Of a stretch of DNA of 64,000 nucleotides, positions 1,648-47,437 are shown in pieces. The notes beneath the pieces were generated by a model, which had not been told where the DNA came from, did not search any database, and saw only the letters and a list, made by a program, of their open reading frames with translations. The position numbers and the translations under genes were made by a program. The stretch's first letter is position 1. Each line of letters opens with the position of its first letter. The stretch comes from Escherichia coli (GTDB lineage: Bacteria > Pseudomonadota > Gammaproteobacteria > Enterobacterales > Enterobacteriaceae): the NCBI RefSeq assembly GCF_003018255.1, contig NZ_CP027440.1. One strand, 5' to 3'.

Positions 1648-2648
1648 AAACAGAACGTATTCTCGGTGCTCTTTATGGGCAGGCGTTAGGGGATGCGATG
1701 GGGATGCCCTCCGAGCTTTGGCCGCGCAGTCGCGTCAAAGCACACTTTGGCTGGATTGACCGTTTTCTGCCTGGGCCAAAGGAGAATAACGCAGCCTGTT
1801 ATTTTAACCGCGCCGAATTCACCGACGATACCTCGATGGCGCTGTGTCTGGCGGATGCGTTACTGGAACGTGAAGGCAAGATCGATCCGGATCTGATTGG
1901 GCGTAATATTCTCGACTGGGCGCTGCGTTTCGACGCCTTTAACAAAAACGTACTAGGTCCGACCTCGAAGATTGCTCTCAACGCCATTCGCGACGGTAAA
2001 CCCGTTGCTGAACTGGAAAACAACGGCGTGACCAACGGCGCAGCGATGCGCGTCTCGCCATTAGGTTGTTTGCTTCCGGCGCGTGATGTTGATTCCTTTA
2101 TTGATGATGTGGCGCTGGCCTCCAGCCCGACACATAAATCCGATCTGGCGGTTGCGGGGGCGGTAGTCATCGCATGGGCGATTTCTCGTGCCATTGACGG
2201 AGAAAGCTGGTCAGCGATTGTTGATTCACTGCCTTCAATTGCGCGACATGCTCAACAAAAACGCATCACTACCTTCAGCGCCTCACTGGCAGCACGTCTG
2301 GAGATTGCGCTGAAAATTGTGCGCAATGCCGACGGCACCGAATCCGCCAGCGAACAGCTTTACCAGGTCGTTGGCGCAGGTACCAGCACTATTGAGTCCG
2401 TTCCGTGCGCCATTGCGCTGGTTGAACTGGCACAAACCGACCCGAACCGTTGCGCCGTCCTGTGCGCTAACCTTGGCGGCGACACAGACACCATCGGTGC
2501 TATGGCGACGGCAATTTGCGGCGCGTTGCATGGCGTTAATACTATCGATCCTGCGTTAAAGGCGGAACTGGATACAGTAAATCAGCTTGATTTCAACCGC
2601 TATGCCACGGCGCTGGCGAAGTATCGCCAACAACGGGAGGCGATATGA
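1644..2648 (+). CDS. yegU: ADP-ribosylglycohydrolase family protein
   Basis: 334-aa ORF; start overlaps the yegT stop by 4 nt (ATGA), suggesting translational coupling; position matches K-12 yegU. Confidence 0.8.
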   Translation: MKTERILGALYGQALGDAMGMPSELWPRSRVKAHFGWIDRFLPGPKENNAACYFNRAEFTDDTSMALCLADALLEREGKIDPDLIGRNILDWALRFDAFNKNVLGPTSKIALNAIRDGKPVAELENNGVTNGAAMRVSPLGCLLPARDVDSFIDDVALASSPTHKSDLAVAGAVVIAWAISRAIDGESWSAIVDSLPSIARHAQQKRITTFSASLAARLEIALKIVRNADGTESASEQLYQVVGAGTSTIESVPCAIALVELAQTDPNRCAVLCANLGGDTDTIGAMATAICGALHGVNTIDPALKAELDTVNQLDFNRYATALAKYRQQREAI

Positions 2649-3610
2649 GCGGCGCTCGATTACACACGCTGCTGCCTGAATTAACCTCGCGTCAGCCAGT
2701 TATGGTGATTGGCGCGGCGGTCATTGATGTGATCGCCGACGCTTATGCCCTCCCCTGGCGTGGGTGCGATATCGAACTGAAACAGCAGAGCGTTAACGTT
2801 GGCGGCTGTGCACTGAATATTGCCGTGGCATTAAAGCGCCTCGGCATCGAAGCGGGTAATGCCTTGCCGCTCGGTCAGGGGGTGTGGGCGGAGATTATTC
2901 GCAACCGGATGGCAAAAGAGGACTTAATCAGCCTGATCGATAACGCCGAAGGTGATAACGGCTGGTGTCTGGCGCTGGTTGAGCCTGATGGCGAACGCAC
3001 TTTTATGTCATTCAGCGGTGTGGAAAATCAGTGGAATCGCCAGTGGCTGGCGCGATTAACCGTTGCGCCTGGCAGCCTGCTCTATTTTTCCGGTTATCAA
3101 CTGGCCTCGCCCTGCGGCGAATTGTTAGTGGAATGGCTGGAAAAGCTGCAAGACGTGACGCCGTTTATCGATTTTGGCCCACGTATTGGCGATATCCCGG
3201 ATGCATTACTGGCGCGGATCATGGCCTGTCGACCTTTAGTGTCACTCAATCGTCAAGAGGCTGAGATTGCCGCCGAACGTTTTGCTTTATCCGCAGAGAT
3301 AACAACACTTGGCAAGCAATGGCAGGAGAAATTTGCCGCGCCGTTGATCGTTCGTCTCGATAAAGAGGGCGCATGGTATTTCAGCAACGACGCTTCTGGC
3401 TGCATTCCGGCATTTCCAACGCAAGTTGTAGACACCATTGGGGCGGGCGACAGTCATGCCGGTGGCGTACTTGCCGGGCTGGCCTCTGGTCTGCCACTGG
3501 CGGATGCCGTATTACTGGGCAATGCAGTGGCGTCGTGGGTTGTCGGGCATCGGGGCGGTGATTGTGCGCCAACGCGCGAGGAACTACTCCTCGCACACAA
3601 AAACGTATAG
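2645..3610 (+). CDS. yegV: PfkB/ribokinase-family sugar or nucleoside kinase
   Basis: 321-aa ORF with the PfkB-type motif DTIGAGDSHAGG near the C-terminus; 4-nt overlap with the yegU stop. Confidence 0.8.
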   Translation: MSGARLHTLLPELTSRQPVMVIGAAVIDVIADAYALPWRGCDIELKQQSVNVGGCALNIAVALKRLGIEAGNALPLGQGVWAEIIRNRMAKEDLISLIDNAEGDNGWCLALVEPDGERTFMSFSGVENQWNRQWLARLTVAPGSLLYFSGYQLASPCGELLVEWLEKLQDVTPFIDFGPRIGDIPDALLARIMACRPLVSLNRQEAEIAAERFALSAEITTLGKQWQEKFAAPLIVRLDKEGAWYFSNDASGCIPAFPTQVVDTIGAGDSHAGGVLAGLASGLPLADAVLLGNAVASWVVGHRGGDCAPTREELLLAHKNV

Positions 3611-6852: not shown

Positions 6853-6985
6853 TTTGCTCCTGCCATAACGTGAAGAAGCAATGACCTGGTGGTCCGTGAC
6901 TTCCCTACGCTGGCATTATCCAGATCAGGTGATACGGGTATTTCTCAGCCTTCACAAAGAAGGGCACCCCGAGTCGTTTGGTTGC
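6853..6985 (-). promoter_or_regulatory. TPP (THI-box) riboswitch in the thiM leader
   Basis: Minus-strand sequence contains CTGAGAAATACCCGTATCACCTGATCTGGATAATGCCAGCGTAGGGAAGTCACGG, which matches the classical E. coli thiM TPP aptamer, immediately 5' of thiM. Confidence 0.85.
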
Positions 6986-25516: not shown

Positions 25517-25870
25517 ATGATCGTGCAAAAAGAGCTGGTTGCTATTTACGATTATGAGGTCCCTGTACCTGAAGATCCGTTTTCCTTCAGACTTGAGATC
25601 CATAAATGCTCTGAATTATTTACAGGTTCCGTCTATCGACTGGAGCGATTCCGGCTACGTCCAACATTTCATCAACGTGATCGAGAAGATGCTGACCCGC
25701 TAATAAATGATGCGTTGATTTATATAAGAGATGAGTGTATTGATGAGCGGAAATTACGAGGTGAATCACCTGAAACTGTAATAGCAATTTTTAATCGTAA
25801 ACTACAGAATATATTCAACCAACTAATAGAATATTACTTTATTAAAGGGGGAAGCGGTTTTCCCCCTTAG
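25517..25870 (+). CDS. yehK: Small uncharacterised protein
   Basis: 117-aa ORF on the track; true start uncertain (I recall the K-12 product as shorter); stop codon lies inside the hairpin that begins the first zor repeat. Confidence 0.5.
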   Translation: MIVQKELVAIYDYEVPVPEDPFSFRLEIHKCSELFTGSVYRLERFRLRPTFHQRDREDADPLINDALIYIRDECIDERKLRGESPETVIAIFNRKLQNIFNQLIEYYFIKGGSGFPP

Positions 25871-25889
25871 TTGCGTTTCAATTTGCCCA

Positions 25890-25979
25890 TTACTTCAACA
25901 AATCAATCAACCGTAACAGAGCCACTAATAGCTCCAGTACAGCAATGAGCACGGTTAACTTTTGTGTCAGCGTGTCCAT
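25890..25979 (-). CDS. zorO: Type I toxin small hydrophobic peptide, 29 aa (ZorO-like)
   Basis: Minus-strand ATG..TAA encodes MDTLTQKLTVLIAVLELLVALLRLIDLLK; AAGGAG SD 5 nt upstream; long 5' UTR; flanking hairpin terminator; too short for the ORF track. Confidence 0.7.
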   Translation of the reverse strand: MDTLTQKLTVLIAVLELLVALLRLIDLLK

Positions 25980-26217
25980 CCGCTCTCCTTATTAAGGAGC
26001 GCAACACCAGCACCTTACCCTTACACTGCCTGTCGACACTGGTTTACGTTTGTTGAGTCGCCATGTTGCACTCCGGATCAGAGCACTACCTGCGGCACCA
26101 CCCGTCCGGTAGCCAGGACTTGAAATGGGTTCGATCCGGCGCAACTTCCCAACAGTCAGGATTATAAATCTCATTATCTTAATTGCAACACGGTCCAGCG
26201 GTGGTTATAATTCGTTC

Positions 26218-26300
26218 GTTGAGATGCCATGTTGCACTATCAGTAACTTAACATCAAAGTAGTAAATAAAAGAACCTGCCTCACCAGCAGGTTCTTTTAT
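26218..26300 (+). ncRNA. orzO: Divergent antitoxin sRNA (OrzO-like), about 80 nt
   Basis: Consensus-like promoter TTGCAA-17-TATAAT (26183..26211), then a transcript ending at hairpin gaacctgc-ctcaccagc-gcaggttc plus T-run; 5' end gttgagatgccatgttgcact is complementary to the toxin 5' UTR (26053..26073). Confidence 0.6.
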
Positions 26301-26497
26301 TTTCTGCGATCTACTTTCCAGATATTTTTCGCCAATAGCCCACCATAAATATTCACATCCCGGCCAAATAGTACGTTGATTATAAAATCGATGAATTTAT
26401 AAATAAAAATGAGTTATATGATGAATTAATAAAAACAGTAATCATTTTATTAAAGGGGGAAACGGTATTCCCCCTTAGATGCGTTTCAATTTGCCCG

Positions 26498-26587
26498 TTA
26501 CTTCAACAAATCAATCAACCGTAACAGAGCCACTAATAGCTCCAGTACAGCAATGAGCACGGTTAACTTTTGTGTCAGCGTGTCCAT
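26498..26587 (-). CDS. zorP: Type I toxin small hydrophobic peptide, 29 aa, second copy (ZorP-like)
   Basis: Coding sequence identical to copy 1 (same 29-aa peptide), same SD and terminator hairpin. Confidence 0.7.
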   Translation of the reverse strand: MDTLTQKLTVLIAVLELLVALLRLIDLLK

Positions 26588-26825
26588 CCGCTCTCCTTAT
26601 TAAGGAGCGCAACACCAGCACCTTACCCTTACACTGCCTGTCGATACTGGTTTACGTATGTTGGTACGAAACGTTGCTCTCCGGATCAGGGCACCGCCTG
26701 CGGCACCACCCGTCCAGCAGCCAGGACTTAAAATTGGTCCGATCCGGCACAACCTCCCAACGGGCAGGATTATAAATCTCATTCACTGAATTGCAATGGA
26801 GTGTGGATATGGTTATAATTTATTC

Positions 26826-26908
26826 GTTGGTACGAAATGTTGCACAATCAGCAAGTTAGCGTCATTGTAGTAAATAAAAGAACCTGCCTCACCAGCAGGT
26901 TTTTTTAT
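26826..26908 (+). ncRNA. orzP: Divergent antitoxin sRNA, second copy (OrzP-like)
   Basis: Promoter TTGCAA-17-TATAAT (26791..26819); 5' segment gttggtacgaaatgttgcaca is complementary to the copy-2 toxin UTR (26661..26681); same terminator hairpin. Confidence 0.6.
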
Positions 26909-27017
26909 TTACTGTGATCTGCTTTCCAGATATTTTTCGCTCAAACAACTAATGCGGCAAACATTTATTGCGCGTAAAATATCGTTTATTTCATTAATAC
27001 ATTTCAGGGATGAATAT

Positions 27018-28106
27018 ATGTCACCGCAGAATAATCATCTGCAGCGTCCGCCTGCCGCTGTGTTATACGCCGATGAACTGGCAAAATTAAAACAAAATGA
27101 TCACGCACCTTGCCCGCCCGGTTGGCAGTTAAGTTTGCCTGCGGCCCGCGCTTTTATCCTTGGCGATAGCGCGCAAAATATTAGCCGTAAAGTCGTGATC
27201 AGTCCCTCCGCTGTCGAACGCATGTTAGTCACTCTCGCTACCGGGCGCGGTTTGATGTTGGTGGGGGAACCTGGCACCGCAAAATCGCTCCTGTCTGAAT
27301 TACTGGCAACCGCTATTAGCGGCGATGCCGGGTTAACCATCCAGGGCGGCGCATCTACCACCGAAGATCAAATCAAGTACGGCTGGAACTACGCCCTGCT
27401 TATCAACCATGGTCCGTCAACGGAAGCGCTGGTCCCTGCCCCGCTTTACCAGGGAATGCGCGACGGCAAAATTGTCCGTTTTGAAGAGATAACGCGTACA
27501 CCGCTGGAAGTACAAGACTGTCTGTTAGGTATGCTTTCTGACAGGGTAATGACGGTGCCGGAACTCACCGGTGAAGCCAGTCAGCTCTATGCGCGAGAAG
27601 GCTTTAATATTATTGCCACTGCCAATACCCGCGATCGCGGCGTCAATGAGATGAGTGCCGCGCTAAAGCGTCGCTTCGATTTTGAAACCGTCTTTCCGAT
27701 TATGGATTTCGCCCAGGAGCTGGAACTGGTCGCCAGTGCTTCGGCGCGTTTGCTGGCCCATAGCGGTATTCCGCATAAAGTGCCTGACGCGGTACTGGAG
27801 TTACTGGTCCGCACCTTCCGCGATCTGCGTGCCAACGGCGAAAAGAAAACGTCAATGGATACCCTGACGGCAATTATGTCCACCGCTGAAGCCGTGAACG
27901 TGGCCCACGCAGTGGGCGTCCGCGCCTGGTTTTTAGCGAATCGCGCAGGTGAGCCAGCCGATCTGGTGGACTGTATTGCCGGAACCATCGTCAAAGATAA
28001 CGAAGAAGATCGCGCTCGTCTGCGCCGTTACTTCGAACAGCGAGTCGCCACACATAAAGAAGCTCACTGGCAGGCTTATTATCAAGCTCGCCACCGCCTG
28101 CCGTGA
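27018..28106 (+). CDS. yehL: MoxR-family AAA+ ATPase (YehL subfamily)
   Basis: Start set at the internal Met (MSPQNNHLQRP; GGGA RBS) within ORF 26952..28106, giving 362 aa; Walker A GEPGTAKS. Confidence 0.85.
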   Translation: MSPQNNHLQRPPAAVLYADELAKLKQNDHAPCPPGWQLSLPAARAFILGDSAQNISRKVVISPSAVERMLVTLATGRGLMLVGEPGTAKSLLSELLATAISGDAGLTIQGGASTTEDQIKYGWNYALLINHGPSTEALVPAPLYQGMRDGKIVRFEEITRTPLEVQDCLLGMLSDRVMTVPELTGEASQLYAREGFNIIATANTRDRGVNEMSAALKRRFDFETVFPIMDFAQELELVASASARLLAHSGIPHKVPDAVLELLVRTFRDLRANGEKKTSMDTLTAIMSTAEAVNVAHAVGVRAWFLANRAGEPADLVDCIAGTIVKDNEEDRARLRRYFEQRVATHKEAHWQAYYQARHRLP

Positions 28107-47264: not shown

Positions 47265-47437
47265 GATGAGCATTCAGATAGTGGTTCACGCGCACGGGTT
47301 GCGCACCGCCGGAGTAAGGATTTACTGAGGCTAGCGACGCCATCATAACGAGCAAAAAGTGCGATCGTCAAAGAAGAATCGTGAGGAAATGCTGCATTGC
47401 TGACATTTACGCCAGCAATGCAGCGCAAAAGAACTTT

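Follow-up and report, generated by a model that had tools for sequence, protein, structure and literature searches.

The window analysed here is a 64,000-nt stretch of the Escherichia coli contig NZ_CP027440.1 (RefSeq assembly GCF_003018255.1). Between its yehK and yehL genes lie two tandem units, each with a 29-codon open reading frame (ORF) on the minus strand and a divergent small RNA (sRNA) gene on the plus strand. We conclude, with confidence close to certainty, that they form the chromosomal zor-orz type I toxin-antitoxin locus of E. coli, with one module of the zorQ/orzQ type beside yehK and one of the zorO/orzO type beside yehL. The system is already known and well characterised, and the combination of a Q-type with an O-type allele (Q+O) is only a mildly new angle. 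The zor-orz genes of E. coli O157:H7 EDL933 were reportedly the subject of work by Fozo in 2010. The zorO-orzO and zorP-orzP pairs of that strain are treated by Wen, Won & Fozo (2014, PMC3919570) and Wen, Harp & Fozo (2017, PMC5397157).

Two toxin–sRNA modules between yehK and yehL

A repeat search found two direct repeats in the interval, one of 300 nt with 92% identity (25833-26132 and 26441-26740) and one of 131 nt with 86% identity (26202-26332 and 26810-26940); the start-to-start offset is 608 bp for both. They outline two units of ~500 bp, 25833-26332 (copy 1) and 26441-26940 (copy 2), and the tandem duplication is genuine, far beyond chance. The 108-bp spacer between the units (26333-26440, assigned to no strand) is not repeated and has a G+C content of 27%. 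Its best local alignment with the yehK 3' end and the yehL upstream region scores 29 against a maximum of 26 for shuffled sequences, which is marginal; this weak similarity is to the 3' part of yehK. The gene order yehI-yehK-[zor/orz]-yehL-yehM was seen in every annotated complete E. coli genome inspected, and the chromosomal site between yehK and yehL is that of zor-orz in E. coli and Shigella.

The minus-strand ORFs, 25890..25979 in copy 1 and 26498..26587 in copy 2, are identical and encode the peptide MDTLTQKLTVLIAVLELLVALLRLIDLLK. This sequence is an exact match to the UniRef entry 'Small toxic protein ZorO' (RepID=ZORO_ECO57) and recurs in Shiga toxin-producing E. coli (STEC), E. coli W, S88 and further loci. 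The 29-residue hydrophobic toxin expected of a zor-orz module has the ZorO sequence or departs from it at a single residue (ZorP, T3S; ZorQ, A20S), and both copies encode ZorO. The peptide includes the ALLRL segment, which is reported to be required for toxicity (PMC6669753); a scan of the peptide against NCBIfam returned no family, even at E <= 10. AAGGAG is located 5 nt upstream of both ATG codons, at 25985-25990 and 26593-26598.

Between 25700 and 27100, a promoter scan detected just four sigma-70-like sites, arranged as two divergent pairs with 10/12 matches each. The minus-strand promoters read TTGCAA-16-TATAAT and the plus-strand promoters TTGCAA-17-TATAAT; these hexamers are conserved in at least 99% of zor/orz loci (Shore et al. 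2024, PMC11264685). All four promoters of the window keep them, as both copies keep the ribosome-binding site (RBS) AAGGAG. As TTGCAA reads identically on either strand, a single hexamer is the -35 element of the zor and orz promoters alike. In the copy 1 promoter region (26161..26211) this common element occupies 26183-26188, between the zor -10 element at 26161-26166 (minus strand) and the orz -10 element at 26206-26211 (plus strand); in copy 2 (26769..26819) it occupies 26791-26796. The arrangement implies that RNA polymerase binding at the toxin and antitoxin promoters would be mutually exclusive or coupled.

The zor transcription start site (TSS) was set 8 nt past the last base of the -10 element, at 26153 in copy 1 and 26761 in copy 2. 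With these TSSs, the 5' untranslated region (UTR) is 174 nt long in both modules (25980..26153 and 26588..26761, minus strand), the RBS falls at +164..+169, and the segment complementary to the Orz sRNA ends at +102. All three positions equal the published values, so the predicted zor TSSs are well supported. In the predicted folds of both mRNAs the RBS is sequestered in a CUCCUU/AAGGAG hairpin. The fold of copy 2 also pairs the extreme 5' end across the Orz target region, in agreement with the published model of the closed full-length zorO leader (PMC5397157); the minimum-free-energy fold of copy 1 is less clear. Judged by these folds, each module has a long, structured leader with a sequestered RBS and a closed 'EAP' region, the latter less clearly in copy 1. 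Both mRNAs are predicted to end in a 9-bp GGGGG/CCCCC hairpin, which in copy 1 coincides with a palindromic terminator-like site (25845..25868, minus strand) and in copy 2 with an inverted repeat (26453..26476, minus strand). From TSS to terminator hairpin the zor mRNA would measure ~310 nt, which fits the published northern bands of ~310 and ~280 nt (PMC3919570).

On the plus strand, the Rfam model RF02083 (OrzO-P; gathering score 60) matches twice, with 90.2 bits in copy 1 and 88.9 bits in copy 2, each time over model positions 1-76 of 76. Both units therefore hold a divergent ~80-nt sRNA above the gathering score of this covariance model. The Orz transcripts are predicted to begin at a G 7 nt after the -10 element (26218 and 26826) and to end in a U run (26298 and 26906) that follows a 12-bp G+C-rich terminator hairpin. 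The resulting length of 81 nt (26218..26298 and 26826..26906, plus strand) agrees with published northerns (PMC3919570). The copy 1 sRNA, of zorQ/orzQ type, has the 5' sequence GUUGAGAUGCCAUGUUGCAC and folds with a z-score of -4.56, terminator hairpin included; the copy 2 sRNA is of the OrzO type and its fold likewise fits.

The copy 1 sRNA also shows a sub-threshold similarity to the Rfam family ohsC_RNA, the antitoxin of ShoB-OhsC (26218-26302, plus strand; 35.4 bits, gathering score 50, E = 0.0068). Matches to ohsC_RNA, STnc370 and ncr1015 were set aside, as they fall below the respective gathering scores and mostly cover the terminator half or hairpin. A 60-aa minus-strand ORF and a 53-aa plus-strand ORF were rejected as genes; both are wholly inside the characterised UTR and have no support.

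An earlier account of this locus, made from the letters only (the sequence-only reading), had anticipated much of this anatomy. The limits it drew, 25842-26938, miss the ends of the repeat units by a few bases at most, and the tandem units that it placed 608 bp apart between yehK and yehL correspond to the two repeats. Its 29-aa minus-strand ORF with a strong Shine-Dalgarno sequence, its toxin 5' UTR of about 174 nt, its toxin hairpin terminator, and its plus-strand promoter followed by a transcript of about 80 nt and a strong terminator were all recovered in each unit. Its remark that the toxin ORF had been missed through a size cut-off holds.

The RF02083 matches, the exact peptide match and the location at the same yehK-yehL site as the STEC ZorO/ZorP locus together identify the two units as zor-orz, and no feature of the sequence was found to argue against this assignment. 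That the units are instead a generic intergenic repeat, or hairpins and small ORFs that arose by chance and have no gene function, is a notion to which we give virtually no credence. The missing RefSeq annotation and the missing NCBIfam model for the peptide would fit it, and nothing more does. It is refuted by Rfam matches above the gathering score, by the exact match to a characterised toxin (PMC3919570) and by conservation at one chromosomal site: a 1,108-nt query finds a partial or full match in 5,232 of 5,426 complete E. coli genomes.

Pairing of the Orz sRNAs with the zor leaders

In copy 2, OrzO can pair with positions +85..+102 of the leader (26660..26677, minus strand) through 12 bp, a G·U pair and 5 bp, that is, 18 continuous pairs with a predicted energy of -31.3 kcal/mol. 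This duplex is exactly that of the STEC reference zorO/orzO. The copy 1 target lies in the EAP/standby region at +82..+102 (26052..26072, minus strand), and its duplex consists of 6 bp, an A·A mismatch and 14 bp including one G·U pair, giving 20 pairs with one mismatch at -34.4 kcal/mol. Both targets end at +102. Shuffled controls reach only ~-12 ± 3 kcal/mol, with a mean of -12.9 kcal/mol for copy 1. According to published work, OrzO's first 18 nt suffice for repression, and pairing must extend over at least 15 continuous nt or, if broken by a single internal mismatch, comprise 17 or more paired nt (PMC3919570). The 14-nt run of copy 1 is below 15, so this duplex qualifies only under the discontinuous rule. 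The complementarity between the sRNA 5' end and the toxin UTR that the sequence-only reading described is therefore present in both copies, but it is imperfect, as it is in the reference alleles.

These features are consistent with the mechanism established for EDL933 zorO/orzO. Each module would be transcribed on the minus strand into a ~310-nt mRNA whose 174-nt leader locks the RBS in a hairpin and keeps the upstream EAP region closed. When made, ZorO would enter the inner membrane, depolarise it and deplete ATP, leading to growth stasis. The divergent 81-nt Orz sRNA, transcribed from a promoter that has its palindromic -35 element in common with the toxin promoter, would pair with the leader, block translation and trigger RNase III-dependent, Hfq-independent decay, and each Orz would silence the mRNA of its own module only. 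In EDL933, ZorO is toxic and OrzO rescues, in a manner dependent on RNase III and independent of Hfq (PMC3919570); those experiments concerned the identical toxin and an Orz whose 5' 18 nt equal those of copy 2. The zorO leader there is 174 nt long and gives a delta-28 processed form, in which +73..+102 is the EAP/standby region and +164..+169 the RBS (PMC5397157). ZorO has also been found to localise to the membrane, depolarise it and deplete ATP (PMC6669753, PMC9860968). Sequence identity, anatomy, pairing and folds thus come from the window itself, and toxicity, processing, RNase III dependence and membrane action from the literature on EDL933 zorO/orzO; by analogy, we infer that the Q-type copy works like zorO/orzO.

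The same logic is known from tisB-istR1 and shoB-ohsC, where a divergent short sRNA pairs through its 5' end far upstream of a sequestered RBS and the active mRNA is processed and follows standby-site logic (PMC5397157). Those systems differ from zor-orz in their toxin families and sRNA sequences.

Several points limit this interpretation. The TSSs are predictions from promoter geometry and from their match to published landmarks. The longest run in the copy 1 duplex, 14 nt with one G·U, is 1 nt short of the continuous threshold. In all pairing counts, the published '18 nt' included, G·U must be counted as a pair. Finally, the growth benefit under aminoglycosides seen with extra zor-orz copies was independent of ZorO toxicity (PMC9860968).

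The short continuous pairing of copy 1 would also suit a locus in decay, in which one or both modules are remnants whose toxin is no longer expressed or repressed and which are kept as sRNA genes with another role, like the orphan orzP of K-12. Such loci exist: about 30% of E. coli have orz without zor, the orphan sRNA being expressed (PMC11264685), a K-12-like locus (L003 among our sampled loci) is an example, and erosion is also seen in S88 (L004), AVS0282 (L009) and EC21GDE043 (L012), where yehK is frameshifted. In the window, however, both toxin ORFs are intact and identical, the promoter pairs retain 10/12 matches, and RBS, terminators and pairing regions are intact. Furthermore, the copy 1 duplex is identical in all 8 other Q-type loci sampled (L002, L005, L006, L010, L011 and L014-L016), which argues for a conserved, stable allele rather than a decayed one. 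We therefore regard decay as very improbable and retain the reading of two functional modules.

The two units are not equally similar along their length. The ORF and terminator agree at 141/147 positions, the RBS-proximal UTR at 67/68 and the Orz terminator at 35/36; the differences cluster in the Orz 5' end (33 of 45 positions identical), the target/EAP region (36 of 47) and the promoter spacer (43 of 58). This is the pattern expected of co-evolving, mutually insulated sRNA–target pairs. With the same toxin in both copies and coordinated divergence of sRNA 5' end and target, each antitoxin is predicted to control only its own mRNA. If the antitoxins instead cross-regulated, either Orz silencing either zor mRNA, the duplication would amount to redundancy and not to two insulated circuits. 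The two sRNAs do have GUUG...AUGUUGCAC in common, and pairing of the O-type Orz with the leader of copy 1 still yields -23.4 kcal/mol, bordering on the shuffled values (minimum -19.9), compared with -16.0 kcal/mol for the Q-type Orz on the O-type leader. Yet the longest Watson-Crick runs of these cross pairs are 5 and 9, with several mismatches, well under both published thresholds, and it is exactly in the segments that pair that the differences between the units are concentrated. Discrimination of this kind has been demonstrated experimentally for OrzO and OrzP, which differ in the V1 region that prevented OrzP from repressing zorO in EDL933 (PMC3919570). Cross-regulation is thus unlikely, and insulated control of each module remains our preferred reading.

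Allele types and their arrangement in E. coli

Over its first 45 nt, the copy 2 Orz differs at 1 position from OrzO of STEC 2013C-4081 (L001), and copy 2 equals that reference zorO/orzO in toxin sequence, in the Orz 5' 18 nt and in the duplex. The copy 1 Orz shares its first 45 nt, without a difference, with the yehK-proximal Orz of O103:H2 PV16-126 (L011) and of E. coli W. In PV16-126 the toxin beside this Orz is the A20S variant, which is named ZorQ and defines zorQ/orzQ as the third type of zor/orz locus (Shore et al. 2024, PMC11264685). On the strength of this identity we assigned copy 1 to the zorQ/orzQ type, although its toxin has the ZorO sequence and not A20S; the typing relies on the A20S link instead of the bit-score criterion against the authors' zorQ/orzQ query (PMC11264685).

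The window has much in common with EDL933: the chromosomal site, the 608-bp tandem architecture, the promoter hexamers, the 174-nt leader, the RBS position (+164..+169) and that of the Orz target (+85..+102). The differences lie in the partner module and in the order. In EDL933 the O-type module is next to yehK and is accompanied by zorP/orzP; in the window it is next to yehL and its partner is of the Q type, so that the arrangement is Q-type, then O-type. Neither a T3S toxin (ZorP) nor an OrzP-type sRNA (5' GUUGGAACACGAUGUUGCAC) was found in the window, and the arrangement is accordingly not that of EDL933, which is matched at the yehK-yehL site of STEC 2013C-4081 by ZorO with its sRNA followed by ZorP (T3S) with another sRNA. 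The sequence-only reading had named the zorO-orzO / zorP-orzP pair and described it as absent from K-12. The family assignment stands, on the Rfam and ZORO_ECO57 matches, whereas the pair itself is Q-type plus O-type. K-12 indeed has no toxin ORF, but it is not empty: the K-12-like locus L003 keeps an orphan orzP and a 27-29 nt zor leader stub between yehK and yehL, and in MG1655 the orphan orzP (OrzPmg) is expressed (PMC11264685). Site, promoter and terminator half of the sRNA are common to the K-12 orphan orzP and the window, which, in contrast to the toxin-less K-12-type loci, carries two complete modules and no P-type sRNA.

Full-length matches to the 1,108-nt query have at least 99% identity in 16 records and 95-99% identity in 141; DETEC-S792 and APEC O2-211 carry the locus at 99.9-100% identity. 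A Q+O pair at 95% identity or more is therefore present in ~157 of the 5,426 complete genomes, and a sampled match of 98.3% (L016) is again Q+O; with roughly 3% of genomes as an approximate figure, Q+O is a minority arrangement. The promoter and orz 5' segment of the copy 1 type is more widespread, at 95% identity or more in ~860 of the 5,426. Among the sampled loci, Q+O occurs in the window, L002 and L016; O+P in L001, L008 and L013; and Q+P in L005, L006, L010 and L011, E. coli W and O103:H2 being Q+P. L009 has a single P module, its leader with a 1-2-nt indel, and L003 the orphan orzP alone. Two loci, L014 and L015, hold Q-O-P triple arrays between yehK and yehL (both 1838-3597). A population survey of 2,212 genomes described three locus types and found three copies in 16 of the 2,212 strains (PMC11264685).

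The Q+O combination together with the Q-O-P arrays suggests that two-copy loci may be three-unit arrays that have lost one unit. In such a model Q, O and P would be positional members of one array, yehK-Q-O-P-yehL; the two-copy strains (Q+O, Q+P and O+P) would be single-unit deletions by unequal recombination between the 608-bp repeats; and the array would provide independently gated channels for one toxin. We consider this model a tentative but serious possibility, just short of one we would favour. If it is true, the rare Q+O combination would offer a natural test of the Q-type antitoxin, whose predicted pairing lies at the edge of the published threshold.

Further variants were noted at this site in other genomes. 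The triple arrays L014 and L015 are from pig-associated strains and an O8:H8 strain, and in sequence all three of their toxins are ZorO; at its -35 element the middle orzO reads TTGCAG, not TTGCAA. The single module of S88 (L004, 1847-1960) and of L012 has yet another Orz 5' end, GUUGGGGCGCCAUGUUGCAU, a fourth allele akin to the Q type. The duplex that it forms with its cognate target contains one mismatch and two G·U pairs, and yehK is frameshifted in those genomes. In the second unit of ET350 (L007, ~1351-1560) the zor ORF is intact and a pattern search found no canonical orz promoter; the unit may have a variant promoter or consist of zor alone.

Annotation, flanking genes and other features of the window

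RefSeq annotates no gene between yehK and yehL in any genome inspected. The significance of the locus is mainly a matter of annotation, since two toxin genes and two sRNA genes are absent from all RefSeq annotations inspected and the peptide has no NCBIfam model; because of these gaps, genome scans will keep 'rediscovering' zor-orz. The biological point is modest and lies in the less common allele combination, Q-type plus O-type with both copies encoding ZorO. A Q+O strain would be convenient material for testing antitoxin specificity.

To the left, the locus is flanked by yehK (25517..25870, plus strand), called 'yehK' or 'hypothetical protein' in matching genomes. The product elsewhere is a 105-106-aa 'protein YehK'; the window encodes a 117-aa form, WP_000636928.1, a 'hypothetical protein' in RefSeq. 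At the C-terminal end of this form, the additional codons and the stop codon pass through the zor terminator hairpin at 25845-25868. As this hairpin is palindromic, it can also terminate the convergent yehK, and yehK and copy 1 zor share one terminator. To the right lies yehL (27018..28106, plus strand), which encodes an AAA-type ATP-binding protein according to the ORF list and the annotation of matching genomes.

Two further RNA elements were found elsewhere in the window, both on the minus strand: a TPP riboswitch (RF00059) at 6885-6981, scoring 71.2 bits (gathering score 54.3), and a Peptidase-S11 RNA motif (RF03039) at 47269-47349, scoring 72.8 bits (gathering score 34.8).

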